Below, in pieces: positions 165-64,000 of a stretch of DNA of 64,000 nucleotides. Origin of the DNA: Deltaproteobacteria bacterium (GTDB lineage: Bacteria > Myxococcota_A > Polyangia > Polyangiales > JADZFZ01). The number at the start of each line of letters is the position of its first letter. Within the stretch, counting starts at the first letter, position 1. A program made the position numbers and the translations under genes. The stretch is taken from the NCBI GenBank assembly GCA_020854145.1, contig JADZFZ010001118.1, positions 14,067-78,066 of the forward strand. Reading direction: 5' to 3'. Under the pieces are notes generated by a model. It ran no database searches. It was not told the DNA's origin and was given only the letters and a program-made list of their open reading frames with translations.

Positions 165-166
165 GT

Positions 167-1306: not shown

Positions 1307-1371
1307 TCCTGGCCTACCCGGGCCTTTCTGCGCTTCCCCGGTGCCGGGGTTCTCGGGCGCGATCCGAATTC

Positions 1372-2193: not shown

Positions 2194-2201
2194 CGCGGCA
2201 C

Positions 2202-3387: not shown

Positions 3388-3596
3388 GTGCCGCCTCCGA
3401 CCCGACGCCGGGCGCGATCCTCCTCGAGCTCGGTCTCGGTTGGCTCGGCGACGCTCTTCGTCACCTCCGCGGCGAGCTCGCGGAACGCGGTCGACTTCGC
3501 CGCCTTCGACGCGAGCAGTGCCGGCGCGATGATCTTCGCCGCCTCGATGACGGCGAGAGCGCCGTCGATGAGCAGCTCCATGACCTTGGGGTTCAC
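3384..3596 (-). CDS. Small hypothetical protein (70 aa; alternative ATG at 3581)
   Basis: GTGA overlap with the lipoprotein gene stop. Helical translation VNPKVMELLIDGALAVIEAAKIIAPALLASKAAKSTAFRELAAEV... Confidence 0.4.
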   Translation of the reverse strand: MNPKVMELLIDGALAVIEAAKIIAPALLASKAAKSTAFRELAAEVTKSVAEPTETELEEDRARRRVGGGT

Positions 3597-13024: not shown

Positions 13025-14634
13025 GACGTCACGTGCTCGATGGTGAGGCGGCCCAGCACGAGGATCTCCTGTGCCGCGGGCTCGTCGCCGCTCGAGCTCG
13101 GCGCGACGACGACGACCTTCGCGGCGCCCTCGAGCGACGCGAGCGCGTTGTAGACGTGCGACGGATAGAGCTTGTGGTCTGGCCCGGTGCTCGGGTGCCG
13201 CGCGTACGTGACGCCACCCGTCGTAATGCCCGGCGTGAGCGCGTCGAAGAGCCCCTCGACGGCCTCGATGACGTCATCGCAGAGAGGCCCGCCCGGATGG
13301 ATCGTCAGCGGCGAGACGGGCGCAGCCGCCATCGCGACGACGTCGAGGTAGTACGGAGCCGCGCTCGCGTTGACCGCGAGCACCTCGACGTGTGCGAGAC
13401 GCGCGCGGCCCGCGACCGTGAGAGGCACGAGCACGCGGTCTCCGATCTCCACGGAGCTCGGCGCGGTCACGAGATAGATGCGGCTCGCCGTGCTCGCCGG
13501 CGCCGCTGCTATCGCGTTCGCCGACCAGGCACCGTCGGGCTCGTAGCCGACGCGCGGCAGGAGCTGCAGCGTGATCGGGGTCGGAGTCGCCTTGTACGTC
13601 GGCACCTTGACGGTGACGTCGTCGGCGAAGCCCGCGACCGTCGCGAGGTGCGTCGCCACCGCGGCCCGCGTCGTCTCGGTCGGCTGCCGTTCGCCCGTCG
13701 GCCCCCAGAGCACGACGTCGACGGTGCCCAGGCCGCGGAAGCCGGCGTACACGAACGCGTCGGCGATGCGCACGCCGGGCGTCTCCCGAGCCCACGAGCG
13801 GAAGTCCTCGGGGTTGCCCGAGCCGGGTCGGTTCGCCATGTAGGCGCGGACGCGGTCGCGGAGCTCGTCGTCGGTCTCGAGATCGCCACCGCCTGACAGC
13901 TCCTGCACGTAGGTCGCGGCCTGGAAGTCGTTCGGTGACGCGCCCGCGGGCGACGCGAGCGTCAGCGTGTCGCCGACGACCTTGTTGCCCGCAGCCTCCG
14001 CATCGTCGGCCTGCACAAGCGCGACGACTCCCCGACGCGCGGTGATCGCGGCGCCGGGGAGCGGGGACTGATTCAGGGGGTGATAGAGGTCGATCGCGTT
14101 GACGCTGCTGATCACCTCTCGAATGGCACGGGGCACGCCCGAGATGTCGAGCACGTCGCCGGCCGCCATCGTCGAGACGTCGGGATTGACGACGATGCGC
14201 GTCGGCGTCGAGCCGTAACCGACCGTCTTGCCGGTCCACGCCGGTTTCGCGCTCGTCGCGTCGGCCGTCGTGGTGTAGCCGCGACCGTCAGCGTGCGTGA
14301 GCACGGAGCCCGACGATTGCGTCGTGTTGGCGTTCGATGCTGGCGTCTCGTCGAAGACGAGCAGCACGCGACCCGAGGCGCGCGTCGGCTGCAATCGGCT
14401 CAGCCCGCGGATGGCTGCGTGCAGCTCGAGGAAGGCGGCCTCGGCCGTGCTCGGGAGCACCTGGTCGGCGATGTACAGGCCTCGACGTTGCGAGCCTTGT
14501 GCGACGATCGCGACCGCGCGCGCGAGCAGGTCATAGTCGCTCCCGGGCGAGACGTCCGCGCCGGTGATCCGGGTACGAATCCCGTCGAGCACGAGCGCGT
14601 GCAGCTCGTCGAACGTGAGCGTCTCGAGAGCCAT
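13021..14634 (-). CDS. Baseplate J-like protein (Mu gp47 / P2 gpJ family)
   Basis: The N-terminus MALETLTFDELHALVLDGIRTRITGADVSPGSDYDLLARAVA... is typical of Baseplate_J. Position follows the gp46-like gene. Confidence 0.85.
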   Translation of the reverse strand: MALETLTFDELHALVLDGIRTRITGADVSPGSDYDLLARAVAIVAQGSQRRGLYIADQVLPSTAEAAFLELHAAIRGLSRLQPTRASGRVLLVFDETPASNANTTQSSGSVLTHADGRGYTTTADATSAKPAWTGKTVGYGSTPTRIVVNPDVSTMAAGDVLDISGVPRAIREVISSVNAIDLYHPLNQSPLPGAAITARRGVVALVQADDAEAAGNKVVGDTLTLASPAGASPNDFQAATYVQELSGGGDLETDDELRDRVRAYMANRPGSGNPEDFRSWARETPGVRIADAFVYAGFRGLGTVDVVLWGPTGERQPTETTRAAVATHLATVAGFADDVTVKVPTYKATPTPITLQLLPRVGYEPDGAWSANAIAAAPASTASRIYLVTAPSSVEIGDRVLVPLTVAGRARLAHVEVLAVNASAAPYYLDVVAMAAAPVSPLTIHPGGPLCDDVIEAVEGLFDALTPGITTGGVTYARHPSTGPDHKLYPSHVYNALASLEGAAKVVVVAPSSSGDEPAAQEILVLGRLTIEHVTS

Positions 14635-44035: not shown

Positions 44036-45771
44036 ACGCGCTCGCGCCCCCGGAGACGGCGGTGGCTGGAGCGACGACGACGCCATTGCCAACCTCATCG
44101 GTGGCGTCGTCAACGAAGCCCTCGACGAGCTCGTCATCACCGGGCGAGTACATCGAGCGCTTCCCTCTCAAGCGCCTGCGCGAGAGCGCGACGAACCCGC
44201 GACGCATCTTCGGCAAGCTCGACGAGCTCGCCGTCAGCATCAAGCGACACGGCGTGCTCGAGCCGCTGCTCGTGCGCCCGGTGCCGGGCAAGCCCGACAC
44301 CGAGATCGTCGCAGGACACCGGCGGTTCCGCGCGGCCACCATCGCCGGCGTCGAGCACGTGCGCGTCATCCTGCGCGAGCTCTCCGACTCCGACGCTCTC
44401 GAGATCCAGCTCATCGAGAACGTGCAGCGCGAGGACCTCCACGAGCTCGACGAGGCCGACGGCTACGCGCAGCTCATCGAGCGGTGCGGCTACACGCCGG
44501 CGACGCTCGCCGAGAAGGTCGGCGTCTCGAAGGCGACGATCCACGCGCGCCTCAAGCTGCGCTCTCTCGGGCAAGCGTGTCGTGACGCATGGCTGAACGG
44601 CGAGCTCGACGCGAGCCGTGCGCTGTACCTCGCGCGCATCCCGACGCAGGCGTTGCAGGAGCAGGCGCTCGAAGAGATCACCAAGGGCACTTTCAACGAT
44701 GGCCCAATGAGCGCGCGCGAGGCGCAAGCTCACATCGCGCACCACTACACCATCGCGCTCGATGAGCGCGCTCGCTTCGACACTGCAGACGAAACGCTGG
44801 ATCCCGTCGCTGGGCCCTGCATCACGTGCCCGAAGCTGTCGGGGAACGCGCGCGACCTGTTCCCCGAGATCCAGCGTGCAGACGTCTGCACGGACCCCGA
44901 GTGCTTCAAGGGCAAGAGCCAAGCGCACTGGAATCGCACCGCCGAGAAGGCGGCCAGGACCGGGTTGCGCGTGCTGAGTGCGAAGGAAGCCAAGAACGCG
45001 ATCGACCCATATGGCCCCACCGGACGCCCCAAGGAGACCTCGGGATATGCCGCCCTCGACCAACAGGCCCCGTGGGTCATCGGCAGAGGCAAGACCTGGA
45101 AGCAGCTGCTCGGGAAGAAGGCCCCCGCTCCGACTGTGATCGCGAGAGACCCTCGCACCGGCGACGCCGTGCAGCTCATCGAACGCAACAGACTCGAGGC
45201 GGTCGCTAAGGAGCACGGCATCGGTCAACCGACCGAAGAAGAGCGGCGAGCGCGAGACGAGGCCAAGGCCAACCTAGAGCGCGCGAACAAGAAGGCTGAG
45301 GCCGACCAGCGAGCACAGCGCGACGTTGCGCTCGCCCTGGTCGCTGCGGCAGAGGCGGGGGGCGGCGAGCAGCTCTGGCCGCTGGTCGCGGCACACCTGA
45401 TCACGATCGAGCGCGAGGGCTACTCCGACAACCTCGACGAGACCGAGATGGCGCAGCGGCGAGGCCTCGACGGCGCGGAAGACGCCTCTGCGCTGCTGCG
45501 TGCTCTGCCGACGATGAAGTCGGCCATCGCGCGTGGGGTCGCCGTCGAGGTCCTCGCGCTCACTGACTACACGGGCGCGATGCGGAGCGAGCTCTGCAAG
45601 CTGCTGGGCGTCGACCCCAAGCGGCCCAAGACGCCAGCGAAGAAGTCGACGGCGAAGGCCGCCAAGAAGACGCCAGCGAAGAAGTCGACGGCGAAGGCCG
45701 CCAAGAAGACGCCAGCGAAGAAGTCGACGGCGAAGGCCGCCAAGAAGACGCCAGCGAAGAAGGGCCGCTGA
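44032..45771 (+). CDS. ParB/Spo0J-like protein with Cys cluster and Lys/Ala-rich repeat tail
   Basis: ParB N-domain (LEPLLVRP...IVAGHRRFRAA; IENVQREDL), HTH (ATLAEKVGVSKATIHARLKL), Cys cluster PCITCP...CTDPECF, and TPAKKSTAKAAKK x3.5. Confidence 0.85.
   Translation: MNALAPPETAVAGATTTPLPTSSVASSTKPSTSSSSPGEYIERFPLKRLRESATNPRRIFGKLDELAVSIKRHGVLEPLLVRPVPGKPDTEIVAGHRRFRAATIAGVEHVRVILRELSDSDALEIQLIENVQREDLHELDEADGYAQLIERCGYTPATLAEKVGVSKATIHARLKLRSLGQACRDAWLNGELDASRALYLARIPTQALQEQALEEITKGTFNDGPMSAREAQAHIAHHYTIALDERARFDTADETLDPVAGPCITCPKLSGNARDLFPEIQRADVCTDPECFKGKSQAHWNRTAEKAARTGLRVLSAKEAKNAIDPYGPTGRPKETSGYAALDQQAPWVIGRGKTWKQLLGKKAPAPTVIARDPRTGDAVQLIERNRLEAVAKEHGIGQPTEEERRARDEAKANLERANKKAEADQRAQRDVALALVAAAEAGGGEQLWPLVAAHLITIEREGYSDNLDETEMAQRRGLDGAEDASALLRALPTMKSAIARGVAVEVLALTDYTGAMRSELCKLLGVDPKRPKTPAKKSTAKAAKKTPAKKSTAKAAKKTPAKKSTAKAAKKTPAKKGR
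44875..44892. repeat. Palindrome copy 4: CGTGCAGACGTCTGCACG (inside the ParB-like gene)
   Basis: Perfect 18-bp palindrome. Translated RADVCT and overlaps the CTDPECF Cys motif. Confidence 0.95.
45631..45765. repeat. 39-bp perfect tandem repeat x3.5 (encodes the TPAKKSTAKAAKK tail of the ParB-like protein)
   Basis: Units at 45631..45669, 45670..45708 and 45709..45747, plus a partial copy. Confidence 0.95.
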
Positions 45772-46602: not shown

Positions 46603-46831
46603 GCGGCGCAAGCGCCGACGATTGCACGTCGTCGAGCACGGCACGATTCGCATCCGGGCCTATCCCGTCATCGAGCGCGCCGTGAATGAGGGCCTCTCCG
46701 CTGGCTGGCGTCGGGCGCACAAGCACACGGACACACCAACCGTCGAGGCGATCCTCGAGCAGCTCGAGCGCGACGTGCTCGCGTGCCTCGACGGAGTCGT
46801 CGCCTTCGATCCGCACGAGCCCGCACCGTGA
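46595..46831 (+). CDS. Small hypothetical protein (78 aa)
   Basis: ATG 46595, in frame with the track ORF 46382..46831. Only the last 78 codons are protein-like. Confidence 0.45.
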   Translation: MGKRRKRRRLHVVEHGTIRIRAYPVIERAVNEGLSAGWRRAHKHTDTPTVEAILEQLERDVLACLDGVVAFDPHEPAP

Positions 46832-47241
46832 CGCGCCAGCTCCCGGCCATCCTCGTGGAGCCCGACGTGCTCGATCACCTCGAGGAGAAAGTTGTCGTCG
46901 TCTCACGTCGAGCACGGCCACATCCGAGCGGCACACGGGTCGTCTACATCGGACGACCCAGCGCGCTCGGCAATCCCTACCGCATCGCCCCCGGATACGA
47001 CGTCGCGCGGGATCCCGACGATGTCCTCGGGCGGTACGCCCGATGGCTCGAGCGGCAGCTCGACACGGACACGGCGGCGAGGCGCGCCATCCTCGAGATC
47101 ATCGCGGCCGTCTGTATCGGCGAGACGATCGCCCTCGAGTGCTGGTGCGCTCCGGCGCGATGCCACGGCGACGTCGTACGCAGCCTGGTGCTCGACACCA
47201 TTCGAGGCGCGATGCACGACGTGCTCGCGCTCGAGCAATGA
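46828..47241 (+). CDS. DUF4326-domain protein
   Basis: Translation VVYIGRPSALGNPYRI...LGRYARWL...ALECWCAPARCHGDVV. GTGA overlap start. Confidence 0.7.
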   Translation: MTRQLPAILVEPDVLDHLEEKVVVVSRRARPHPSGTRVVYIGRPSALGNPYRIAPGYDVARDPDDVLGRYARWLERQLDTDTAARRAILEIIAAVCIGETIALECWCAPARCHGDVVRSLVLDTIRGAMHDVLALEQ

Positions 47242-47711
47242 CCGCCGACCTCCCGCGGTGGCTCACGGCCGACGAGGTCGCGACGATGTTGCACTACCGG
47301 TCGCGCGCCGGCGTGCACATGGCCGTGAGGCGCGGCGAGCTCGTCGGCTATCGCCGCGGCCGCCGCGTGCTGTTCCTGCTCGAGGACGTCGATCGTATGC
47401 TCCGGGGCCGTCCGGTCGTGCGCCCCAGAGGAGAGGACTCCAATGGGCACCACGACGAAACCGAACCGACGAATCGCACCGGGTCTCTGGCAATTGGATA
47501 CGGAGAGGTGGCTCATTCGCGTCAAGGCGCGGAGCCGCAAGACGGGGAGAATCGGGGAGCGCCTCGAGCAGTTTCGGGGGACGCGAGCGGAGGCGATTGC
47601 CACGCGCGAGCAGTGGCGACTCGAGCTCGTCGGCGACGTCGTCCAGCGCGAGAGGCAGACGCTCGAAGCTGTCGCGAAATCGTGGCTGCAGCTCAAGATC
47701 GCACGCGGTGA
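47238..47711 (+). CDS. xis: Excisionase-like HTH protein; ORF tail overlaps int out of frame
   Basis: Translation WLTADEVATMLHYRSRAGVHMAVRRGELVGYRRGRRVLFLLEDVDRML. No stop until 47711, 269 nt into int. Confidence 0.6.
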   Translation: MTADLPRWLTADEVATMLHYRSRAGVHMAVRRGELVGYRRGRRVLFLLEDVDRMLRGRPVVRPRGEDSNGHHDETEPTNRTGSLAIGYGEVAHSRQGAEPQDGENRGAPRAVSGDASGGDCHARAVATRARRRRRPAREADARSCREIVAAAQDRTR

Positions 47712-48606
47712 TCTCGCGACGAGCACCGCCGACCGATACGCGCGCGCTCTCGACGATCACATCCTGCCCGCCCTCGGTGACGTCTTCCTCGAGGAGCTCA
47801 CGCGTGCGGATGTCGATCGATGGCTCGCCGGCGTCGGCCAGGAGCCGAGCACGTGCAATGGGTACCTGCGAGTACTTCGCTCCGTGCTCGAGGGCGCCGT
47901 CGCCGACGAGCTCGTGCCCGCAAACGTCGCGACGCGCGTCGCACCGCTGAAGGAACGCACGCGCGACGAGCCGAACGCGCTCACGGCCGACGAGCTCCGG
48001 CGCGTGCTCGAGCACTGGCGCGCGACGCGGCCGGAGCAGTATCCGCTCGTGCTCGCGCTCGCGCTCACGGGAGCGCGGTGGGGCGAGATCACGGCGCTGC
48101 GATGGAGCGACATCGACGCCGCGGCCGCGGAAGGCGCGCTGACGATCCGTCGCGCCCACCATCGCGGAGAGGTGAAGGAACCGAAGACGGGCGTGCGGCG
48201 CATCGTGCCCTTCCCTCGCGTGCTCGCGCGCGTCCTCGAGGAGCACCGCAAGCGGTGCCTCCGGGAGCAGCGACCGGGCTTCGAGGACGGTTGGGTGTTC
48301 ACCTCGAGCGAGGGGACGCTCCTCGACAATGGTCGATTGTCGAAGCCCTGGCGCGAGGTCCTCGGCGAGCTCGAGATCGCGAAGCGAGTCACCATGCACG
48401 GGCTCCGACACACGATGACCGACCTGCTGCGGCACGCGCGCGTCGACCAGGTGACCTCGGCCGCTCTCATCGGCCACACCACCGAGCAAATGCGGCGACG
48501 CTACTCCACCGTTCTGCCCGCCGAGGCGCGCGCTGCCGGCGACCAGGTCGTGAGAATGGCCGGGCTCGCGGGTGGGAGAATCGGTGGGAGCCGGCGACGG
48601 AAATGA
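47443..48606 (+). CDS. int: Tyrosine integrase
   Basis: GGAGAGGA RBS. Motifs ALALTGARWGEITALRWSDID, HGLRHTMTDLL and IGHTTEQMRRRY (R..HxxR..Y). Confidence 0.9.
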   Translation: MGTTTKPNRRIAPGLWQLDTERWLIRVKARSRKTGRIGERLEQFRGTRAEAIATREQWRLELVGDVVQRERQTLEAVAKSWLQLKIARGDLATSTADRYARALDDHILPALGDVFLEELTRADVDRWLAGVGQEPSTCNGYLRVLRSVLEGAVADELVPANVATRVAPLKERTRDEPNALTADELRRVLEHWRATRPEQYPLVLALALTGARWGEITALRWSDIDAAAAEGALTIRRAHHRGEVKEPKTGVRRIVPFPRVLARVLEEHRKRCLREQRPGFEDGWVFTSSEGTLLDNGRLSKPWREVLGELEIAKRVTMHGLRHTMTDLLRHARVDQVTSAALIGHTTEQMRRRYSTVLPAEARAAGDQVVRMAGLAGGRIGGSRRRK

Positions 48607-48610
48607 AAAA

Positions 48611-48648
48611 GGCCCCCGAGACCCTAATGGTCTCGGAGGCCTACTTTT
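48611..48648 (+). terminator. Intrinsic terminator-like hairpin (A-run upstream, T-run downstream: possibly bidirectional)
   Basis: aaaaa-GGCCCCCGAGACC-ctaat-GGTCTCGGAGGCC-tactttt, immediately after the int stop. Confidence 0.6.
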
Positions 48649-48666
48649 CCGGGGCGATCACGCCGG

Positions 48667-48732
48667 AGCGGGAGAAGGGATTTGAACCCTCGACTTCAAC
48701 CTTGGCAAGGTTGAGCCCGTTTCCACTGAGCA
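48667..48732 (-). pseudogene. tRNA-Gly(GCC) remnant lacking the 5' acceptor strand (att-site fragment)
   Basis: Minus strand reads D arm GCTC-AGTGGAAAC-GGGC, anticodon arm CAACC-TTGCCAA-GGTTG, T arm GAGGG-TTCAAAT-CCCTT and 3' acceptor CTCCCGC-T. The 7 nt 5' of the D arm (TGTAGAA) cannot pair. Confidence 0.7.
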
Positions 48733-48751
48733 CTTCTACACATTCTTGAAA

Positions 48752-50068
48752 TCACTTCGCTTCTTGAGCCATGTCGTGCCGGCGCGCCTCGGCGTCTTCG
48801 CCTCGGTGGACACCGGAGTGGACACCTCCGGGGATGAGCCGCAGCGCTTGCTCGCCTGCGGCGCGAGCTTCGTCGGGCCGCACCTTCGAGTACCGCCTCT
48901 GCATCGCGTCGCTCTCGTGCCCGACGATGGACTGTCGGATGAACGAGTCGACTCCCGCCTGCCGCAGCAGGTCGACCATCGTGTGCCGCAGTCCGTGGAA
49001 CGTGACGCGCCGCTCGATGCCCACGGCCTTCAGGACGTCACGCCACTCCTTTGACAGGCTCCCGTTGACGAGCAGCGTGCCTTTCTCCGTCGTGAAGAGG
49101 TAACCCGCCGCGATGCCGGGATGCTCGACGGCAACCATCCACCGCCGGTACTCGCGGAACAGCTCGGAGAGCGCGTGGGGCCATGGAACCGAGCGCCGCC
49201 GCCGCCCCTTGGTGCCCTTGAGCTGACCTCGATAGTGCGCGCGCCGAACCAAGAGCGCCCCCTCTCGCTCCGCCTTGTCGAGATCGGCAGGTTGCAGCGC
49301 GGTGACCTCCCCCCACCGCATACCGGTGACGGCCGCGGCAAGCACTATCAGGAAGCCCTGCACCTTGAGATCACGGCGGTGCCGCCCGTGGAATCGAGGG
49401 TGGAGGTACTCCGGCGCGTCGGGCCACACGAGAGCGCATCGCCGTCGCCACTCCTCGATGATCGCACCCAGCTCCTCGGGCTCGAACGTGTTGTCGCCGT
49501 CGTCGGGGTGCTCGTCCTCGGGGATCGGCTTGACCAGGGCGGCCACGTTGCGGGCGATGAGTTTGTCGCCCACGGCGTCGTTCAGCAGGCTTACCAGCAC
49601 CCGCAGCCAGCCGTTGCACGACGTGGCTTGCCATCGCTCTGCTTCTGCCTTGAACCACGCCACCACGTCGGCCTTCTCGAGCCTGGCTAGGATCATCTGC
49701 CCGAGCGCCGGCCTAATCTGTCCGTCGAGCCCGACCGTGTTCAGGATGTGCTGGTCCAACGCGGTGGTGTAGCGGTCCACCGTGCTCGGCGACCATCTTC
49801 GAAGTGCGAGCCCGGTGCTCATCCACGACCGCGCGAATGACTCCACGGTTTCGCGGCTCTGTACTTTCACCGGCTCGTTTGCCGCCAGTTCGGCCCGCAC
49901 CTTCTCGCGTTCGATCAGCGCCTCCGCCTTCGTTCCGTCGAACTGCTGCCACCGGCTTCCGACGAGGCCGGTCTTCGAGCTGCGCGCCTTCACGCGAAAC
50001 TCGAACTTGTCCTTCTCCAATTGCCAAAGACCCGGCGCTACGCGCCTCTTCTTGCTTGTGCGTGCCAT
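48752..50068 (-). CDS. int: Tyrosine integrase (paralogue of 47443..48606)
   Basis: N-terminus RRVAPGLWQLEKDKFEFRVKARSSKTG versus RRIAPGLWQLDTERWLIRVKARSRKTG in int1. Motifs HGLRHTMVDLL and VGHESDAMQRRY. Confidence 0.9.
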   Translation of the reverse strand: MARTSKKRRVAPGLWQLEKDKFEFRVKARSSKTGLVGSRWQQFDGTKAEALIEREKVRAELAANEPVKVQSRETVESFARSWMSTGLALRRWSPSTVDRYTTALDQHILNTVGLDGQIRPALGQMILARLEKADVVAWFKAEAERWQATSCNGWLRVLVSLLNDAVGDKLIARNVAALVKPIPEDEHPDDGDNTFEPEELGAIIEEWRRRCALVWPDAPEYLHPRFHGRHRRDLKVQGFLIVLAAAVTGMRWGEVTALQPADLDKAEREGALLVRRAHYRGQLKGTKGRRRRSVPWPHALSELFREYRRWMVAVEHPGIAAGYLFTTEKGTLLVNGSLSKEWRDVLKAVGIERRVTFHGLRHTMVDLLRQAGVDSFIRQSIVGHESDAMQRRYSKVRPDEARAAGEQALRLIPGGVHSGVHRGEDAEARRHDMAQEAK

Positions 50069-50294
50069 CGATCAACTCCCCGGCGCGCACGACCGATCGA
50101 GGACGAATCATAGCGTCCAAATCCTCGCGCCGAAACAGCAAGATGCGTCCACGCTTGCCGACCGCTTTGAGGGCGCCGCGGCGAACGGCCATGAGCACGC
50201 CCCCGCGCGATTGGTAGCGGAGGTAGAGCGCCGCCTCGGCCGTCGTCAAGAACGGCGAAGTTGTCGGCGAAGCCTGCGAGTCGGAGAGAAGCAC
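49713..50294 (-). CDS. xis: Excisionase-like HTH protein (paralogue of 47238..47711); tail overlaps int out of frame
   Basis: Translation FLTTAEAALYLRYQSRGGVLMAVRRGALKAVGKRGRILLFRREDLDAMI. The int ATG (50068) lies inside this ORF. Confidence 0.55.
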   Translation of the reverse strand: MLLSDSQASPTTSPFLTTAEAALYLRYQSRGGVLMAVRRGALKAVGKRGRILLFRREDLDAMIRPRSVVRAGELIDGTHKQEEARSAGSLAIGEGQVRVSREGAQLEDRPRRKPVAAVRRNEGGGADRTREGAGRTGGKRAGESTEPRNRGVIRAVVDEHRARTSKMVAEHGGPLHHRVGPAHPEHGRARRTD

Positions 50295-50743
50295 CGAGAC
50301 GCAGATTTGTGCGGATCCACGACCGAGTCTTCAGACACAATTCAACGTCCGAGGTCCGGTCCAGAATGCGGCCCCAAATCAGATCCTCGAGAGACCCGCG
50401 GCGAGGCCACTGAACGCCTGTTTACCCACCCAGACCGCACTTGAACAACGCAACATCACCGCGGCGGGTCGCCCGCGGCCCGCCCTCCTAGGGGACCCTG
50501 GGGTCACTTTTCTCCAGCCGTTTCGCGCCGTTACCAGGGCCACGGCCAGTGCCCGGGGGGATCCCTTCCAACGTAGAAGGGGGGCCGCGGTGGCTAGATT
50601 CTTAACTCGAAAGGCTCCCCAGCCGGATGCCCCAAGGGCCTCAAGCTGGCGTGGAGCCCAGGGCGGCTTCTGAACGGCAGCGCGCGGCGGTCCTCGAAGT
50701 CGCCAGCGACATGCGAGAAGGCAGTCCAAGAGTATTCCACTCC

Positions 50744-50759
50744 TCTCTAGATCTAGAGA
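50744..50759. repeat. 16-bp perfect palindrome TCTCTAGATCTAGAGA
   Basis: Read directly from the sequence. Overlaps the stop codon of 50753..51943. Confidence 0.95.
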
Positions 50760-51943
50760 CCCGGTGGACGGAATCGCCAGCTCGCACAGGGGAGTTGCCT
50801 CCGAACGAAAGGCACAAGCCCACGCTGAGTGGCCAACACCTCCTGGTGGGCGTCACACGCCCAGCCGACGCGCTCGATTGGGCCCAATTGGGCGCCCAGG
50901 TAGGGACTCCCGGCGGCGCGTCGAGACCGACCACGCCGAAAGCCAAAGATGCACTCGTGCGAACAGACTGCACCGCAGATCTCGCAGTGTGCATGGGGAC
51001 CCGGTGGCAGAGCGTCAGGGTCAGAGGACACCGGAGGGCAGCAATTCGGCCACGCCGCCGGCATACCCATCACCGGCAAGGAGGGCGCGCGCCTGGGGCG
51101 ATGAAGCGCGATACCGCCCCTGTCCAAACGCCCCTTTGGGTCCGAATCACCTTGCCCAACGGCCCCATTCGATGGGCCGGCAGACGGCCGACTGTCCGTC
51201 CAACTGCCAGCAGGGGTGCGCCCGCCTCGGTCCGACTGCGATTGCTCGGCACTCGGCTCGACCTCTCGAAACGGTCTGCTGAGACGGTCCTTTGCCTTCT
51301 GTAGCTTAAACGCGGTCGTACGCAGCGCCCGAGCTAGCGCAGCCGCCTCCGGGCTCTCGCGAACACCGTCGGCGCGTCGCCGAACACTGGTCTTGCGCGA
51401 GGCCTCGTGGTCCCAATAATCGTCAAGGCCACCAAGCAGCGTCGTGATGCTCCGAAAGTGGTTTCCCCGGCCCGACGACGTCCGAGTGGCCTCCAGCCAA
51501 GCCAGTGCACGATCGAGTTCTCCGCGAAGCCCGGGATACTCGCGACGGACGATAGCGACGGACAGCCTAGCAATTACCATCACTCCTGTGTCCGCGCCCT
51601 CGCCCCACAACTCCTCCACCAGCCTCCACACATCCACAAGTTGCTGTCCAGGCTTGGGCCCTCTGGCGCTCTCGAGGGGCGCGCCGGGAACCTCCATCGT
51701 GTAGGCCACCCGGATCGCGGGCGTCTCTGGTCTCGCTGCGAACCTCCAGGCAACTCCAACGAACGTGCCTATCGCACCCGCGATACTCCAGTTTCCAGAA
51801 CGGCGCACAAAGGGCACGATCCCACCGGAACTAGCCTCCGCGCCCTCCTCCGCGGTGGTCCCAGCGTGCGGCGCGCCGCTATCGCCTCCCCCACCGGCCT
51901 TAGCGACAAATGTGTCTGTTGAACAATCGTCTGACTTCGACAT
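50753..51943 (-). CDS. Hypothetical protein (396 aa) with one hydrophobic segment and a C-terminal Cys/His cluster
   Basis: Long ORF in a lower-G+C stretch. Motifs WSIAGAIGTFVGVAW and HAHCEICGAVCSHEC...WACDAH. The C-terminal third is less protein-like. Confidence 0.45.
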   Translation of the reverse strand: MSKSDDCSTDTFVAKAGGGGDSGAPHAGTTAEEGAEASSGGIVPFVRRSGNWSIAGAIGTFVGVAWRFAARPETPAIRVAYTMEVPGAPLESARGPKPGQQLVDVWRLVEELWGEGADTGVMVIARLSVAIVRREYPGLRGELDRALAWLEATRTSSGRGNHFRSITTLLGGLDDYWDHEASRKTSVRRRADGVRESPEAAALARALRTTAFKLQKAKDRLSRPFREVEPSAEQSQSDRGGRTPAGSWTDSRPSAGPSNGAVGQGDSDPKGRLDRGGIALHRPRRAPSLPVMGMPAAWPNCCPPVSSDPDALPPGPHAHCEICGAVCSHECIFGFRRGRSRRAAGSPYLGAQLGPIERVGWACDAHQEVLATQRGLVPFVRRQLPCASWRFRPPGL

Positions 51944-52011
51944 TGTGCTCTCCTACAGCGCCATTGCGAGCAACGTATGTTGTTGCTTCTTTTGGCGTGT
52001 AAGGAGACAAT

Positions 52012-52233
52012 ATGACAACAAACGCGAAGCAATGCCAATCCATGCTAAGAGTAGTCGAGGCCGCCGCCCGAACCGGGCTGTCGCCCGCAACTATCTACCG
52101 GATGATGAGGAGTGGACAGCTGCGTGCTTGGACCGTCGCTGGACGAGCGCGTATCGCAGCGGAAGACCTGGACGAGCTGTTCACACCAGTCCTGCGACCC
52201 GCAAACGACGGGCGGAAGGGTGCGGCGGAGTGA
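52012..52233 (+). CDS. AlpA/excisionase-family HTH regulator
   Basis: AAGGAG RBS. Translation MLRVVEAAARTGLSPATIYRMMRSGQLRAWTVAGRARIAAEDLDELF. Confidence 0.7.
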   Translation: MTTNAKQCQSMLRVVEAAARTGLSPATIYRMMRSGQLRAWTVAGRARIAAEDLDELFTPVLRPANDGRKGAAE

Positions 52234-52361
52234 GGGGGCCTGGCGCGTCTCTTCGCGAATAACGCTGCACTGAACGGTGCGGCGAGAGACTGGGCTCCAA
52301 AAACTGCGCGAGCCGGGGCACCGCCCGACCCGCGCTGCACAACCCCTACTGCTGAGGGATC

Positions 52362-53021
52362 ATGTACACCTACTCTGTTTCTCATGTCGAAAATGCGCAA
52401 CCACATGCCAGTCCGGCTCCGACGGCGAACGCCGCCGTGTCGTCCGCCCCGCTCCTGTCCGCAGATCACCTAGCGTTCCTCGCGGCTCGGGGCATCTCGC
52501 CGGACCTCTCGGCGAGCGCCGAGCTGTACTCGGTCGACCCGCAGCAAGCCTCGGAGCTACTGGGGGACACCGTCGCGTCCTGGGGCATCGCCGTCGCATG
52601 CTGGATCTCCGACGCGTCAGGACTGGGGCACCGGGAGATCTGCTGTGTCCGGCTGGACCACGTCGCGCCGGGAGAGGCGCACTGCGCGCGCCCGCGTGGG
52701 AGGCCTCGTCCCACCTACCTCCCGACCGTCGTGACCCGAGAGACATGGCGCGATCCCACTGCTGAGCTGGTCGTGGTCGACTCGCCCATCGCAGCGCTAG
52801 CCCTGGCAGCCGCCGGAATCGCGGCTCTCGACATTGGCGACGACGGTGCGCCGAGCGTCGAGTGGCGCGGGCGGCGCGCCACTCTCCTCTACAGCGGCCG
52901 CCGGGCGTGGAACGCGGACGTCGCTCTGCGTGAGGTGCGGGTCGCCCGCGACCTCCTGGGACGCGGCGCCAAGGTGCTAGTCGCGGAGCTGCCAACCCTG
53001 GAGCGAGGAGGTGCGCTGTGA
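52362..53021 (+). CDS. DUF3854/Toprim-like domain protein (primase-associated)
   Basis: Motifs LSADHLAFLAARGISPD and LVVVDSPIAALALAAAGIAALDIG. 4-nt overlap with the helicase gene. Confidence 0.6.
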   Translation: MYTYSVSHVENAQPHASPAPTANAAVSSAPLLSADHLAFLAARGISPDLSASAELYSVDPQQASELLGDTVASWGIAVACWISDASGLGHREICCVRLDHVAPGEAHCARPRGRPRPTYLPTVVTRETWRDPTAELVVVDSPIAALALAAAGIAALDIGDDGAPSVEWRGRRATLLYSGRRAWNADVALREVRVARDLLGRGAKVLVAELPTLERGGAL

Positions 53022-55267
53022 GTAAGCCCATCCCGTCGCTTCCGGTTGCCTGGTCGCCGCGCGGTCGAGACGATCTCTGCCCCGATGACCTGGTCGCCCA
53101 GTCCAGCGTGGAGCGAGTCCGAGGGCTCCTGGCGGTAGCTCGTCCCGCCACGGCGCGGGAGCACGCCGTGGCGGTCCTCGAGCGCGAAACCGATCACGAG
53201 CGCAGGAGCGCGCGTGCGCGCGAATTGCTAGATGATCTGCCGTACGTGGCAGCGCTCGCCCTCGAGGACCGCGCCGAACGCGAACGCGCCATCAAACTGC
53301 TGACGAAGAGAACGAGCGTCACCAAGGCTGCAGTCGAGGAGCGCCTACAGGCGTTCGAGCGCGCGACCGAGGGCCAAGACTCGGACGAGGGACAGGGACA
53401 GGACGGGAGCACCCACCCCGCCGTCGACAGCGTCAGCCTCGAGGCCGGCTGGCTCTGCGCGACAGGCCACCGCGGGAAACCACTGCGGCTGGCTAACTTC
53501 GACGCGCGGATTGAGGCGGAGGTCACGCACGACGATGGTGTTGACCGTCGGAAGCGCTACCGCATCACAGGCAGCCTCCTCGCGACGGGCGAGGCACTCG
53601 AGGCAGTAGAGGTGCCCGCCGCAGACTTTTCTGCGATGAAATGGGTACACCCAGCCTGGGGCGCACGTGCGGTGGTCGGTGCTGGTCCTGGCGTCGGAGA
53701 CAGGCTGCGCGAGACGATCCAGCTCCGCTCCACCCCGACCCGCGAGACAGTCTACTCGCATCTCGGCTTCCGGAAGGTCGATGGCGTCTGGACCTATCTC
53801 GATGTCGGGGGCAGCGCCTCGAGCGTAGCGGCGCGTGTCGAGGTGCCGCACGATCTACGTCGGTTCCAGCTGATCCGCTCCACTGCTACCGCGGCCGATG
53901 CGCTGCGTGCGTCGATAGGGATCCTGGCGTGCGCACCGCTGGCGATCACTGTCCCGCTGCTCGGTGCTGTGTACGCTGCACTCCTCGCGTCCATCCTCCC
54001 GATCGACGTGGTGCTCTGGCTGTTTGGGCAGTCGGGCACTCGGAAAAGCAGTCTCGCAGCGATCGCACAGGCGCACTACGGCTCGGCGATGATTGACCGC
54101 CGTAACCTCCCGTGCTCCTGGACGTCGACGGCCAACGCGCTCGAGGAGACCACGTTCCTCGCGAAGGACGCGCTGGTCGTGTGTGACGACTATGCGCCGG
54201 CCTCGAGCGCAGCTGCGCGCCAAGAGCAAGACGCGAAGGTGGAGCGCATCGTGAGGAACGCGGGCAACCGGGCTGGACGACAGCGCATGCTCGCAGACCT
54301 GAGCCTCGCACCGGCACATCCACCACGATGTCTCCTCCTCTCGACCGGGGAGGATGCGCCGAGGATTGCCTCGATCCGCGCGCGCACCTTGCTGGTCGAG
54401 GTGCAGGATGTCGACCTGAATGCCCTGTCTGCGGTGCAGCGGTACCCCGAACTCCTCCCGCACGCCCTCGCCGAAGTCGTCGCCTCGATCTGCGGTCACT
54501 ACGATGCGTGGGTGGCGTACGCGCGAAGCCAGCAGGCCGAGGCCACCAGGAACCTATCGGCGCGGCTCGGCCCCAAGGCGCACTCCCGCACCGCGGGCAA
54601 CGTCGCGCAGTTGTACGTCGGCATCCTCTTGGTGAGCGACGTCGCCAACCAGGCGGGTGCTCTCGATGCCGCCGAGAGAGACCGACTCCGGAACGATGCG
54701 TTCGAGGCGCTCGTCGCTGTCGGCCGGCGACAAGCCTCGCTCGCCGAGGACGAGTCGCCCGCGGAGCAGTACGTCCGGACGCTCAGCGGCCTACTTGCAT
54801 CGGGTGCTCTCTGGCTCGCCCCACGGAGCGCGAGCGTGGCGGCGGAGCCTCCCCGCGGCGCCAGGACGGTTGGGTGGCGTGACGACGAGTGGGGGTACGT
54901 GCTGCCTACGGTCGCTTGGGAGGAAGTCAGTCGCGCGCTGAAGGTCAGTGGCGCCGGCCTCCCGGTCTCGCCTCGCATGCTCTATCAGGAGATGCTCGCC
55001 CGAGAATGGCTGGTAGCCGATCCCGACGGCAAGCACCAGGGCCGTGTCCTGAACGTCGGAGGCAAGTCGAAGCGTGTGTTGAAGCTCCCGATCGAGGTGC
55101 TTGAGGGTGCTCCTGGGAGCGACGCCGAACGCATCGAACCCGGGCCGAGTACCACAAGTACCAGTTCCACAGTGGAGGGGAGATCTACCGACCAATGCGA
55201 TGTACGAGACGATGCCGTGAGAACTCGTTGGCAGCGATGCCTTGCGCGAGACTCTCCTACCTCTTGA
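53018..55267 (+). CDS. DUF927-type replicative helicase/initiator
   Basis: 749 aa. Walker A LFGQSGTRKSS and Walker B-like ALVVCDDY. Confidence 0.8.
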   Translation: MSKPIPSLPVAWSPRGRDDLCPDDLVAQSSVERVRGLLAVARPATAREHAVAVLERETDHERRSARARELLDDLPYVAALALEDRAERERAIKLLTKRTSVTKAAVEERLQAFERATEGQDSDEGQGQDGSTHPAVDSVSLEAGWLCATGHRGKPLRLANFDARIEAEVTHDDGVDRRKRYRITGSLLATGEALEAVEVPAADFSAMKWVHPAWGARAVVGAGPGVGDRLRETIQLRSTPTRETVYSHLGFRKVDGVWTYLDVGGSASSVAARVEVPHDLRRFQLIRSTATAADALRASIGILACAPLAITVPLLGAVYAALLASILPIDVVLWLFGQSGTRKSSLAAIAQAHYGSAMIDRRNLPCSWTSTANALEETTFLAKDALVVCDDYAPASSAAARQEQDAKVERIVRNAGNRAGRQRMLADLSLAPAHPPRCLLLSTGEDAPRIASIRARTLLVEVQDVDLNALSAVQRYPELLPHALAEVVASICGHYDAWVAYARSQQAEATRNLSARLGPKAHSRTAGNVAQLYVGILLVSDVANQAGALDAAERDRLRNDAFEALVAVGRRQASLAEDESPAEQYVRTLSGLLASGALWLAPRSASVAAEPPRGARTVGWRDDEWGYVLPTVAWEEVSRALKVSGAGLPVSPRMLYQEMLAREWLVADPDGKHQGRVLNVGGKSKRVLKLPIEVLEGAPGSDAERIEPGPSTTSTSSTVEGRSTDQCDVRDDAVRTRWQRCLARDSPTS

Positions 55268-58904: not shown

Positions 58905-59864
58905 TCACTTCTTCTCGTATTCGTCGACCAAGAGACGGGCGGCCGCATCTCCGACTTCGCGGGCGGCATCGTCGTAAAGTTCGGTCGACCGACTGCTCTT
59001 GTGGCGTCCGAAGTGCTGCGCCGTTCGGAGGTTCCCAGTGGCGTTGAGCACTGCCGTAATCGCGGAGTGGCGAAACGAATGCGGGTGCACGACGACGCCG
59101 ACGCGCGCGCCAGCCTCGCGAATGATCTGGAAGATCGCGCTGCCAGTCAGCCGCTTGCCTTTGCTGGCGGAATGAACGCCGCAGAACACCGGTCCGGGCG
59201 CGTCACCGCGGATCCGAAGCCACGCGACGAGCGCCGCCTCGGTCGCGGCAGGCAAGGACCAAGTCTCAAACTCGCCCTCTCGCTGACCTTTGAGGCGCAT
59301 GGACACTTCGTGTTTCGCGAGGTTGACGCGCTCCCGGTCGAGGGACATCACGGAACCCCGTCGGACGCCGAGATCGCTGAGCAGCCTGAGAATCGCGAAA
59401 TTGCGCACGTCCCGCGGCGCGCCGGCAGCCGCTGCTTCTCGAGCCTTGTTGAGCATGTCACGCACGACGCCGAACGCCGGTCCCTTCGTGTTGTAACGGA
59501 CGCGAGTCCCGGGGACTTGCGCCACGTCGAGATGCCAGTCCACGACGCCCAATTCCCTTCCCACGCCGACGACCGAACGGATTGACGCCAATCGCCGATT
59601 GACCGTCGGGGGACTCAACCCGCGCGCGATCATCGCGTCTCGGTAGTCGCCCACGGCGGCGTTGGCGTCGCCACGCGCGAGCGACAAGAGTCGCATGACG
59701 GCTCGTGTCGAATCTCGCTCCCCCATGAAGGCGGCGAAGTGCTGAAGGTCTTTCCGGTAGGCGCTAATCGTCTCGCGGCTCTTCTCAGTCTCGAGGCGCG
59801 CCATGAGTTGCCCCAGCCGCGACTGGGAGTCCGGCGGCTCCCACCGACTGATTGAATCCGCCAT
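58905..59864 (-). CDS. Tyrosine recombinase, XerC/D-like, apparently intact
   Basis: SAM-like N-domain (ETISAYRKDLQHFAAFM). Motifs ILRLLSDLGVRRGSVMSLDRE, HPHSFRHSAIT and GRHKSSRSTELY. Confidence 0.85.
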   Translation of the reverse strand: MADSISRWEPPDSQSRLGQLMARLETEKSRETISAYRKDLQHFAAFMGERDSTRAVMRLLSLARGDANAAVGDYRDAMIARGLSPPTVNRRLASIRSVVGVGRELGVVDWHLDVAQVPGTRVRYNTKGPAFGVVRDMLNKAREAAAAGAPRDVRNFAILRLLSDLGVRRGSVMSLDRERVNLAKHEVSMRLKGQREGEFETWSLPAATEAALVAWLRIRGDAPGPVFCGVHSASKGKRLTGSAIFQIIREAGARVGVVVHPHSFRHSAITAVLNATGNLRTAQHFGRHKSSRSTELYDDAAREVGDAAARLLVDEYEKK

Positions 59865-60312
59865 TGTCGAAGATTGTCACGGAATTCAATTGTGGCACGC
59901 CGGATCGGCTTCGGAGCCACCGCCAAAGTGCCCCGATCGGCCCCCGAAATTGTTGACCCTGTTTCCCGGCGTGACCCGTGTCAGCTTGCAGAAATGACCT
60001 ATTGACGACAGCTCCCGAATCGCGGTTTGGCCTGGGGTCAACAGGGTCCAAGGCGATCGGCGGCCCCTCCGCTTCGGGGTCCTGTGCGGGGATGGGAAGC
60101 GGGTCATCGAGCACGGGAGCGGCCCGCCGTTCGAGTTGCGAACTCGCCGTCGGGCGCCGGGCCACTGGCCGCGCGCAGCCGTCGGGAACGCCGCCCGCCC
60201 ACGGGCCGCTGTCGCGTTGCGACTCGGAGCGACGCTCGTGCAACGCCGTGCCTCCATGGTCCCCGGATGTAACGCAGGAGACTTCGGCGACGGACACCGC
60301 GCCGCCAGTCGT

Positions 60313-61673: not shown

Positions 61674-62597
61674 TCATTCAGGCGCGACGGTTGATGCAGC
61701 ACCGGTTCGCCGCCGAACGACTCTTGCGGGAGCGCATCGCGCGTGAATGAGCTTCCAACCATTGCGCGCGCCACTCGCTTCTTCGACAATCGCCCCGAGT
61801 TGATTCAGATCGACGTGGTGTTCGGAGATGCCGGGGTCTCTGCGATACTCGGCCCCAAGGGCGAGGCGTTCCTTCGGCGACCTCGCCCGCTCTACAATTC
61901 GCGAGAACGCCTCGCACGAATAGGCGAATAGTTCTCGTTTTCGGTACTCGATATCGAGCAGCCACTGGCGACGTCGCGTCTCCTTGAGCCCGACCGTGCC
62001 GCGCTTGCAGTTGTGGAAGATGTGGGCGACCTCGTGAACGAGGAAATCAGCGAAGGGATCGTCGTCCTCGAAGTACTCGGCCGACACGTAGCAGGTCGTC
62101 TCCGGATCGTCGTCCTCGAAGTACTCGGCCGACACGTAGCAGGTCGTCTCCTCGGAGAGACCGACAAGTCGTGGCGCGTCGTCGCCAAGCACGTCGGCGC
62201 CAATGCTGACCAGGAAGAGATTCGCGAGGACCCAGCTCGAATGAAGCCAATGGGAATCTCGCAAGAGCCGACCGATGTTCTCCCTGGTGAGGAAGACGAC
62301 CGACTTCTCCAACACGGCCAGCACGGGGTCTTGCTCGGCCCGCGGGAATAGCCCGCGAACCATGGGGGCGACCTTCCGTCGTGTGAGCGCGACGGTGTCG
62401 ATGCTGGGTATCGTGCGCAACCGCGGTGCCGCATCAGCGCGACGTTCCACCTCGGCCGCCAGCGCGTCGGTGAGATCGTCGTGGGCGCGCTTCGAGCCTT
62501 CGAAGAAGCCTCCCGGCCACGCAGCGTGATGCGTCTCGTACTTGCCGGTGCGGATGTACCGCTCGATCTCGTCGGCGATCGTCGGCCGCTGCGTCAT
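61674..62597 (-). CDS. HEXXH-motif protein (putative zinc metallopeptidase), contains a 16-aa perfect tandem duplication
   Basis: Motif FLVHEVAHIFHN. ATG 62597 (MTQRPTIADEIERY) is preferred over the track start 62702, which overlaps the upstream gene. Confidence 0.65.
   Translation of the reverse strand: MTQRPTIADEIERYIRTGKYETHHAAWPGGFFEGSKRAHDDLTDALAAEVERRADAAPRLRTIPSIDTVALTRRKVAPMVRGLFPRAEQDPVLAVLEKSVVFLTRENIGRLLRDSHWLHSSWVLANLFLVSIGADVLGDDAPRLVGLSEETTCYVSAEYFEDDDPETTCYVSAEYFEDDDPFADFLVHEVAHIFHNCKRGTVGLKETRRRQWLLDIEYRKRELFAYSCEAFSRIVERARSPKERLALGAEYRRDPGISEHHVDLNQLGAIVEEASGARNGWKLIHARCAPARVVRRRTGAASTVAPE
62056..62151. repeat. Perfect 48-bp tandem duplication (2 copies)
   Basis: 62056..62103 equals 62104..62151. 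Encodes ETTCYVSAEYFEDDDP twice, just N-terminal of the HEXXH motif. Confidence 0.95.
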
Positions 62598-62677
62598 GGT
62601 CGGCGATGGTACACGCGGCGTGACCCCCCTGCGTAAGCCCCCGTGCGAGACGCTCGGCTCGGCATCACGAAGCCCGC

Positions 62678-63073
62678 TCACCGGCGTCGTCTGGGTCCCC
62701 ATTTGTCACCGTACTGGGGAGGATCAGGAATCCGCTGAACAGGCTCGCTCGCTCGTTCCGCGATGAAAGTGCTGCCGTCGCCATTCGTGATCTTGATGCG
62801 ACCGCGGAGCCTGCCGTCCTTGCCGAGCCTGACGCTGCCCGTGCCGGTCATCTCGTCGTACTCCCAGGCGCCCTCCCAGGTGAACGACGCCCCAGTCTTC
62901 GTGGGTGTCACGTTCACGTACGCGAGCAAGCAATGCATCCGAAGTCGGTCCGCGCCGCCAGTGATGGAGATCATCGCCGGGCCCAGGTCGTCGAGCCCGT
63001 CGTTCACCCAGGTTGAGGTGTCCGTGATTCGCCACCAGCCGCACAGACCCGGATCCAAGCCCTTGCTCGTCAT
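62678..63073 (-). CDS. Small beta-rich hypothetical protein (131 aa)
   Basis: ATGA overlap with the upstream stop. Translation CGWWRITDTSTWVNDG...ASFTWEGAWEYDEMTGTGSVRLGKDGRLRGRIKITNGDGSTFIAER. Confidence 0.55.
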   Translation of the reverse strand: MTSKGLDPGLCGWWRITDTSTWVNDGLDDLGPAMISITGGADRLRMHCLLAYVNVTPTKTGASFTWEGAWEYDEMTGTGSVRLGKDGRLRGRIKITNGDGSTFIAERASEPVQRIPDPPQYGDKWGPRRRR

Positions 63074-63999: not shown

Positions 64000-64000
64000 G

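Follow-up and report, generated by a model that had tools for sequence, protein, structure and literature searches.

Mobile elements lying back to back at a leftover piece of a tRNA-Gly gene are a known and fairly common kind of arrangement. Integrases of the lambda and L5 types bind core and arm sites, together with an excisionase, and mycobacteriophage L5 integrates at a tRNA-Gly gene. Accretion and cis-mobilization arrays at a shared attachment (att) site are likewise known, from integrative and conjugative elements (ICEs) and cis-mobilizable elements (CIMEs) in Streptococcus thermophilus and from the tandem arrays of SXT/R391 elements. Here, we analyze 64,000 nucleotides of a Deltaproteobacteria bacterium (assembly GCA_020854145.1, contig JADZFZ010001118.1, positions 14,067 to 78,066; hereafter, the window), in which two excisionase-integrase (xis-int) modules converge on a short gap holding a tRNA-Gly(GCC)-like sequence. 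We propose, with moderate confidence, that this gap is a hybrid att junction, generated by tandem integration of a myovirus-type prophage (left, with int1) and a second element (right, with int2) at tRNA-Gly(GCC), with crossover in the anticodon loop.

The window resembles lambda- and L5-type systems in several respects. Its integrases are ~390 to 440 amino acids long, with an N-terminal extension followed by SAM-like and catalytic domains; each gene adjoins that of a small helix-turn-helix (HTH) excisionase; and both window arms carry paired direct repeats ~100 to 135 bp from the core. It differs in that the N-termini of int1 and int2 match no arm-binding domain family in a Pfam scan, in that binding at the repeats is putative, and in its host, a high-G+C “Deltaproteobacteria” metagenome-assembled genome. 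With the ICE/CIME and SXT/R391 arrays, it shares related integrases, a tandem arrangement at one att site, and an internal hybrid att that could allow separate or joint excision. Unlike in those arrays, the window pairs a tailed prophage with the other element, and conjugation genes are not seen anywhere in it. The right-hand element is also reminiscent of P4-like satellites and phage-inducible chromosomal islands (PICIs): int, small HTH regulator(s), and a P-loop replication-type protein lie at one end, the site is a tRNA, and there are no virion genes in the visible part. However, no hijacking or packaging genes were found in it, its HTH_17 protein has no match to the AlpA family, and it shares only xis-int with the phage.

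The Islander database records 125 tandems and 2083 anticodon-centered sites among 3919 islands (Hudson, Lau and Williams 2015, PMC4383910). Like the tandem tRNA-gene (tDNA) islands in that collection, the window has tyrosine integrases, a presumed anticodon-loop crossover in a tRNA gene, and a tDNA fragment at the junction. Each island of an Islander tandem has its own integrase gene, as int1 and int2 provide here, and its own tDNA fragment, oriented as the intact tDNA at the end of the array; the 64-kb window contains one such fragment. The window further differs in that the internal junction alone is visible, in that its int genes converge instead of each lying at the same island end, and in that the 5′ side of its tRNA-like sequence is unusually tRNA-like. 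For the myxophage Mx8 (intP/attP, cited in PMC4383910), the crossover lies inside int and integration alters the protein. Mx8 and the window have in common a tRNA target, att elements overlapping the int 3′ end, and a host with high G+C that belongs to the former Deltaproteobacteria, whereas the window core lies outside both open reading frames (ORFs) and the candidate arm repeats alone lie inside.

The tRNA-Gly(GCC)-like junction

The integrase genes int1 (47443-48606, plus strand) and int2 (48752-50068, minus strand) converge, their stop codons separated by 145 nt, and the 5′ neighbor of each is its own excisionase-type gene, xis1 (47238-47711, plus strand) and xis2 (49713-50294, minus strand). 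A terminator-like hairpin (48610-48642), whose 14-bp stem has runs of A and T on its flanks, lies just past the int1 stop and the tRNA 3′ end. ARAGORN and Rfam make a single tRNA-Gly(GCC) call in the gap (48665-48739, minus strand). An earlier note on this DNA had described convergent modules flanking a hairpin and a tRNA-Gly(GCC) copy, and its coordinates agree with ours. For comparison, public genomes were scanned with the 3′-terminal 20-mer of the tRNA, giving at least 120 loci, many of them, among the matches listed, from Polyangiaceae and other Myxococcota. We refer to compared loci by labels beginning with L; the hairpin-and-repeats layout of the window is also seen in L095, L086, and L044.

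The junction copy is intermediate between an intact gene and an ordinary att fragment. It scores 35.8 bits against the Rfam tRNA model (gathering score, 29), while two intact tRNA-Gly genes score 69.9 bits each, and none of the att-type fragments at 20 loci in other genomes (among the matches listed) reaches 29 bits. Its D stem has 4 bp and its anticodon stem is perfectly paired. The acceptor stem forms five of seven pairs: strands GUAGAAG and CUCCCGC give U2·G71, A3·C70, and A5·C68, with two A·C mismatches, and the stretch joining the acceptor and D stems is one base short. We take G1:C72, C2:G71, and G3:C70 to be glycine identity pairs; positions 2:71 and 3:70 are here U·G and A·C. Judged on these features, the copy is clearly not a native gene, yet its 5′ side is more tRNA-like than that of ordinary fragments, and it is probably not a working tRNA.

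Genuine tRNA-Gly(GCC) sequence is confined to the 3′ part (48667-48708, minus strand), which runs from the anticodon loop TTGCCAA to the discriminator and matches exactly the 3′ halves of the intact L105, L107, and L047 tRNA-Gly genes. In ~90 intact tRNA-Gly genes that share its 3′ end (among the matches listed), the sequence 5′ of the anticodon stem is GCGGGAGTAACTCAG[TC]GGTAGAGTG, where the window reads GTAGAAGTG-CTCAGTGGAAACGGGCT. Because the 5′ side of the window differs from all these genes, native sequence starts at the anticodon stem-loop (48697-48713) and not at position 8. The earlier note had considered the copy intact from the D arm onward, with its breakpoint at position 8. Neither part of that description survives the comparison with intact genes, in which the copy also scores 35.8 against 69.9 bits, and the supposed D arm overlaps a motif, GAAACGGGCT, discussed below. 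The CAACC/GGTTG stem variant also occurs in an intact tRNA-Gly beside a 38% identical integrase (L159); thus, the 3′ part is compatible with a host gene of the L159 kind.

The presumed crossover region is a 19-nt near-perfect palindrome, TCAACCTTG-G-CAAGGTTGA (48696-48714), which is the anticodon stem-loop. Its loop, TTGCCAA, occupies 48702-48708, and it is asymmetric at the central base only. This core lies outside both ORFs, 38 nt past the int2 stop and ~90 nt past the int1 stop. In most of the 20 att fragments, the stretch identical to the tRNA has its start at the anticodon loop, and in a few it reaches into the stem (among the matches listed). Comparison of intact genes with these fragments would place the crossover within the anticodon loop.

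To the right of the loop is a 43-nt pseudo 5′ half (48709-48751, minus strand), which we interpret as the P arm belonging to the int2 element. Two motifs lie in it: GAAACGGGCT (48714-48723), inside the D-arm-like hairpin, and ATTTCAAGAA (48743-48752), the first base of which is the last base of the int2 stop codon. GAAACGGGCT occurs six times in 914 kb (the window plus the loci), and four of the six occurrences, in the window, L050, L064, and L091, lie 5 to 19 nt upstream of an att-fragment anticodon loop. The P arm of L091 has both GAAACGGGCT and ATTTCAAGAA, in the same orientation as the window arm. Since these motifs recur in att-fragment arms, the “D arm” of the window is one of a family of arms on the element side. 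L091 and L086, on one contig, are the two ends of a ~35-kb element; at L086, the intact tRNA is present, and an int1-like integrase gene comes after it. We considered and rejected the possibility that an ordinary element had entered the palindromic core in inverted orientation, as this predicts a reverse-complemented tRNA 3′ half upstream of the loop, where the window arm instead matches the L091 P arm in the same orientation.

The L091 fragment (5339-5413), an element arm joined to a tRNA-Gly 3′ half, is itself called as tRNA-Gly by ARAGORN and falls under the Rfam threshold. Thus, ARAGORN calls on att fragments can be false. The L091 arm also holds GCGGGAA, near the true acceptor strand GCGGGAG; on this resemblance, element arms of the L091 kind may be decayed tRNA 5′ halves.

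Each window arm carries a pair of direct repeats with 12-nt spacing, both pairs ~100 to 135 bp from the center of the loop. One pair, GGTGGGAG (48571-48590, plus strand), lies inside the int1 3′ end, and the other, GTGGACACC (48806-48826, plus strand), inside the int2 3′ end. They are candidate arm-type integrase-binding sites of the prophage and the right-hand element, respectively. Comparable pairs are present in the int 3′ ends of L086 (GTGGGGAGG) and L044 (GGTGATGCA), and also at L095 and L003. Other island integrases are known to have paired arm motifs at a fixed distance from the crossover (PMC10111431). At loci that show a single att site or the two ends of one element, the same motif occurs in both arms (L003, TTACCACCC; L086/L091, CTCCCCAC). 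The window arms carry different motifs, each inside its own int 3′ end, which argues that the junction was built from two elements.

Composition and gene content change across the junction as well. G+C content and G+C at third codon positions (GC3) are ~0.70 and ~0.85 on the left and ~0.66 and ~0.76 on the right, and xis-int is the only DNA or protein common to both sides. The differences in arm repeats, composition, and gene content, with only xis-int shared, thus point to two elements. Two suggestions of the earlier note are borne out here and by tandem and convergent cases elsewhere: that two distinct elements meet at one tRNA-Gly att junction, and that the tRNA-like copy is an att remnant and not the host gene.

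One such case is L095 (CAVXQZ010000003.1, the final 3.9 kb of a 3.98-Mb contig), where a convergent integrase pair surrounds a tRNA-Gly 3′ fragment. On one side of this fragment lie three GCTGTCCAC repeats and a terminator-like hairpin, and on the opposite side lie two GGTGTGAA repeats. The L095 integrases are 36% identical to each other and 26 to 30% identical to those of the window, and by its layout L095 is an independent instance of the whole arrangement. A further tandem array is present in JANYHK010000027.1 (L033/L082).

In the proposed mechanism, site-specific recombination between two elements that share one core, the tRNA-Gly(GCC) anticodon stem-loop, would make the junction. One element would have entered tRNA-Gly, and the second would then have entered one of the resulting att sites, leaving at the internal junction the arm of the second element, the core, and the arm of the prophage. 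Left of the loop, the tRNA 3′ half, the hairpin, and the GGTGGGAG pair would be the int-proximal arm of the prophage, in the usual layout, whereby an element regenerates the tRNA gene 3′ end and terminator. Right of the loop, the pseudo 5′ half and the GTGGACACC pair would be an arm of the int2 element, whose int gene would lie on the other side of its att. This mechanism predicts an intact or regenerated tRNA-Gly beyond position 64000 and a second 3′ fragment beyond position 1. It also predicts that the N-terminal domain of each integrase contacts that integrase's own repeat pair while the core-binding domain contacts the anticodon stem arms, and that each element relies on its own Xis to direct excision. 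The anatomy, the homologies, and the recurrence in other genomes are observed; we infer the sequence of events, what binds the repeats, and where the outer sites lie.

The xis-int modules and their relatives

The two integrases match PF00589 (Phage_integrase) with 62.5 (int1) and 62.9 bits (int2; E ~5e-17 each) and belong to phrog_1 (E values of 2.5e-62 for int1 and 6.3e-53 for int2); int1 also matches SAM_3 and a central domain. They are 43% identical over 421 alignment columns, in which the catalytic motifs ARWGE/MRWGE, HGLRHT, and GH...RRY are present. Their near-identical N-termini, already remarked upon in the earlier note, read RRIAPGLWQL...VKARSRKTG in int1 and RRVAPGLWQL...VKARSSKTG in int2. 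Homology of the excisionases, likewise proposed there, is upheld: xis1 and xis2 are 48% identical over 113 amino acids, and both have the MerR-type winged-helix domain HTH_17 (xis1, residues 8-58, 34.9 bits; xis2, 35.2 bits; cut-off, 27). Their TIGR01764 scores, 19.8 and 23.6 bits, are under the cut-off of 28.8.

At the DNA level, the two xis-int modules are mostly 50 to 75% identical along their length, with a low-identity stretch around one indel and no near-identical stretch anywhere along the module. The modules are thus, by this measure, old paralogues. Recent duplication or gene conversion of xis-int is ruled out by the absence of a near-identical stretch.

The deposited versions of both integrases are shorter than the ORFs used here. 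The deposited int1 protein has 370 amino acids and starts at an internal TTG, residue 18 of our ORF (the difference spanning window 47443-47493); the deposited int2 protein has 342 amino acids and starts at residue 97, 96 residues short (window 49781-50068). The N-terminal ~35 amino acids are conserved across int1, int2, and the proteins P0003 and P0004. That the RRxAPGLWQL N-terminus is kept even in these distant relatives shows, at the level of sequence conservation, that the longer ORFs are right. The shortening probably results from the run-on of the upstream xis ORF: the xis1 ORF overlaps int1 by 269 nt in another frame, and the xis2 ORF overlaps int2 by 356 nt. The overlap is present in L044 and absent in L095. 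At the stop rate of this frame in genes of the window (0.0081 per codon), an ORF would stay open by chance with probability 0.48 across 90 codons and 0.38 across 119, and coding periodicity in the overlap is found in the int frame only. We therefore reject a functional meaning for the run-on, which is a by-product of high G+C, as the earlier note had suspected.

The closest relative of int2 by full-length comparison is int1. A HMMER search of 1.84 billion representative proteins with int2 as query returned int2 itself, then int1 (P0002; 289 bits, 48% identity), and next proteins of at most 38% identity (201 bits). The 90% cluster of int2 has a single NCBI member. In a metagenome scan with the int1 and int2 alignment as query, relatives were only 21 to 35% identical over long matches and up to 52% over short stretches, and a viral scan with int2 gave one match (30%). 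The best cultured-phage matches of the integrases are tyrosine integrases of actinobacteriophages (26 to 34% identity). Phages found in a viral scan with ParB have neither int1-like genes nor the tRNA-Gly site.

Relatives in the same integrase clade occur at tRNA-Gly(GCC) in L044 (35% identity) and L159 (38%). In L159 (1-5330; JGI 3300063430), the int2 relative, with a CPGLWQL N-terminus, adjoins an intact tRNA-Gly(GCC), and the element encodes a relaxase, NikA, and ParA. The clade thus also serves conjugative or mobilizable elements.

A still closer relative of int2 lies on a 1.6-kb contig (L152, 2-1212; ENA ERZ27258482, k141_237479), where it is split into three ORFs and is likely, from these disruptions, a pseudogene. 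Two short protein fragments are 76 to 77% identical to int2, and the DNA is 81.6% identical to window 48804-49281. L152 keeps a repeat pair, GGTGTCCAC, the counterpart of the GTGGACACC pair in int2; this conservation indicates that the pair travels with the int2 lineage. Next after the homologue comes an intact tRNA-Val(CAC), encoded on the other strand, and the genes past it are apparently those of the host. Outside the repeats, L152 and the window have no significant homology (130 of 500 shuffles reach the score), and a hidden tRNA-Val site for int2 was rejected, since the window has no tRNA-Val fragment. On this comparative evidence, the integrase clade uses both tRNA-Gly and tRNA-Val and has switched tRNA target and int/att geometry.

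Alternative explanations

Several observations weigh against a tandem integration at tRNA-Gly(GCC). Searches allowing up to three mismatches, and short-word BLAST, find no second att copy or intact tRNA-Gly in the 64-kb window, which also contains no second pair or cluster of GGTGGGAG or GTGGACACC and no recognized host gene. The 5′ side of the junction is more tRNA-like (35.8 bits) than all 20 control fragments among the matches listed (each under 29 bits), which a plain displaced-fragment view does not require. Furthermore, the position of int2, upstream of and co-oriented with the core, is matched only at L095 and L003, 2 of 15 int-adjacent sites among the matches listed; the geometry of int1, which reads toward the tRNA 3′ end, is found at 13 related loci, again among the matches listed. 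The closest relative of int2, in L152, has this common geometry at tRNA-Val(CAC), and nucleotide homology to it ends right after the second repeat, so that the link of int2 to a tRNA-Gly arm may, on this sequence comparison, be the product of an older rearrangement. Last, the role of the repeats as binding sites is one that we infer.

The less common geometry is nonetheless represented in what looks, from its repeats, like an intact phage att site. On the viral contig of L003 (8330-8560; IMG/VR UViG_3300045836_000153), T[TA]ACCACCC occurs twice upstream of a tRNA-Gly 3′-half core, inside the int 3′ end, and three times downstream. Because L003 has a two-armed att site with int on the 5′ side, the int2-side geometry is real, though in the minority.

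Recombination between the att of the prophage and that of the other element, producing a fused replicon or a composite island, would make the junction one of two internal att sites and leave little or no host DNA on the contig. This cointegrate is unlikely, and it ranks first among the alternatives. It would fit the lack of recognized host genes and of an outer att site in the window, the full two-armed phage att layout of the junction, as in L003, and the source contig, which is only 93,982 bp. Yet a chromosomal tandem array fits the same data, there is no evidence of circularity, and related elements are integrated beside host genes (L152, L159). That the contig derives from a genome bin counts neither for nor against a cointegrate.

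It is doubtful, to a slightly greater degree, that both halves of one tRNA-Gly locus were replaced. Here, the prophage would have regenerated the 3′ half, and the right-hand element, entering from the 5′ side, would have supplied an imperfect 5′ half, with the displaced 5′ fragment at the far right. Such displacement has precedent, as 159 of the 3919 Islander islands displace a 5′ tDNA fragment (PMC4383910). The full-length call by both ARAGORN and Rfam, the score above all 20 control fragments (among the matches listed), and the 4-bp D stem and perfectly paired anticodon stem are in its favor, as are the 19-nt palindromic core and the placement of int2 beside the tRNA 5′ side, a mirror image of int1. 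However, a replacement half would have two A·C acceptor mismatches, one base missing between the acceptor and D stems, and U·G and A·C at 2:71 and 3:70, presumably glycine identity positions. Its “D arm” contains GAAACGGGCT, which also occurs in clearly non-tRNA arms, where its distance from the loop varies between 5 and 19 nt. In addition, the ARAGORN call on the L091 fragment means that false calls are possible, and L095 and L003, with their int2-like geometry, regenerate no tRNA.

The earlier note had gone beyond tandem integration to propose a helper/satellite pair, in which the right-hand element would be a satellite without a capsid, using the same att site and integrase family as its myovirus helper and mobilized and packaged by it. 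We consider this addition just as doubtful as replacement of both tRNA halves. The order of int, xis, HTH_17 regulator, and DUF927 P-loop gene recalls PICI and P4-type satellites; no structural genes are detected in the visible 15 kb; the two elements are directly adjacent; and int1 is the closest full-length relative of int2 among the 1.84 billion representative proteins (int2 as query). Against this, no Sid/Psu/Delta, capsid-size, packaging-redirection, or small terminase hallmark was found in scanned ORFs at 50 to 64 kb (Pfam, PHROG, PADLOC, and NCBIfam, the set of ORFs differing between libraries). Nothing is shared outside xis-int, so no common packaging site or regulator is visible. The integrases are old paralogues (43 to 48% amino acid and ~50 to 75% nucleotide identity over most of the alignment), the right side has a third recombinase, and the same integrase clade is found in a conjugative-type element with a relaxase (L159). 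The proposal of a pair, which drew on adjacency and integrase homology only, is therefore unsupported: homology to capsid-redirecting, small terminase, or packaging-signal functions is missing from what was scanned.

A single inherited unit with an internally duplicated and inverted xis-int module is very improbable: int1 is the best full-length relative of int2 (int2 query only) and no outer att sites are seen in the window, but the divergence is old and roughly even along the module (mostly 50 to 75% nucleotide identity), a 76 to 77% identical int2 relative exists elsewhere at tRNA-Val, the arms have different repeat motifs, composition shifts across the junction, and L095 has an unrelated convergent pair.

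Tandem integration of a prophage and a second element at tRNA-Gly(GCC) thus remains the reading that we favor. It could be extended, as a long shot, to a form of cis-mobilization by accretion distinct from classical satellite hijacking. The palindromic anticodon stem-loop may let related integrases dock from either side, one regenerating the 3′ half and the other replacing the 5′ half, and the prophage and a nonviral element might then excise as one circle and travel in a phage particle.

Gene content of the two elements and significance

The left element (3593-47241) is the body of a myovirus-type prophage, in keeping with the complete myovirus that the earlier note had placed there. Its structural and replication genes lie on the minus strand (~3.6-38.9 kb). 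PHROGs matches on this side include small and large terminase subunits, portal, major head protein, tail sheath, tape measure, baseplate hub and wedge, primase-polymerase, methyltransferase, and ParB. ParB lies in a plus-strand block (~40.9-47.2 kb), as does a DUF4326 protein (46783-47241) just upstream of xis1. A perfect 39-nt tandem repeat in 3.5 copies (45628-45762) encodes a Lys/Ala-rich PAKKSTAKAAKKT tail at the C-terminus of the ParB-like protein. Between the baseplate and tail-fiber genes, a 1422-amino acid ORF (9005-13273) has no PHROG match; its product is presumably a large tail or fiber protein. Window 1-3600 has lower G+C (0.67-0.70), and its ORFs at 167-1306 and 2566-3609 have no family match. 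It contains no att fragment or repeat cluster that would mark the left end of the prophage, the boundary of which is beyond the window or degraded.

On the right, a ~1.7-kb stretch between xis2 and the next HTH gene (50295-52011) has a G+C content of ~0.65 and no codon-position G+C periodicity; its longest ORF has no family match, and no Rfam family reaches its gathering threshold there. It looks noncoding, and could be a regulatory region, an origin, or an RNA. Beyond it lie, all on the plus strand, a second HTH_17 regulator (52012-52233; Pfam), a protein of 219 amino acids that matches no family (52362-53021), and a P-loop protein with DUF927 (52934-55267; Pfam, 25.5 bits; cut-off, 22.6). 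This block (52012-55267) has no PHROG, PADLOC, or NCBIfam matches and is likely a replication module.

A third tyrosine recombinase, XerC/D-like, is encoded 9 kb to the right of int2 (58905-59876, minus strand). It scores 91 bits against TIGR02224, far under the cut-off. No att-like repeat was found near it, and it may mark another element or have a resolution function. Pfam, PHROGs, PADLOC, and NCBIfam give no match for the remaining ORFs on the right side, and no defense functions are detected in the right element by PADLOC, PHROG, or NCBIfam. One of the unmatched ORFs (61674-62705; 343 amino acids) contains a perfect 48-nt tandem duplication (62056-62151).

If the tandem reading is true, the window adds another case in which mobile elements have accumulated at a tRNA gene, from a high-G+C branch of the former Deltaproteobacteria that has been poorly sampled. 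It also carries a warning for annotation: hybrid att junctions can be called tRNA genes by both ARAGORN and Rfam. Furthermore, for an integrase clade that has received little study and has tRNA-Gly and tRNA-Val as its targets, the locus supplies candidate core and arm-type sites. The finding would gain weight if joint excision or joint transfer of the two elements were demonstrated.

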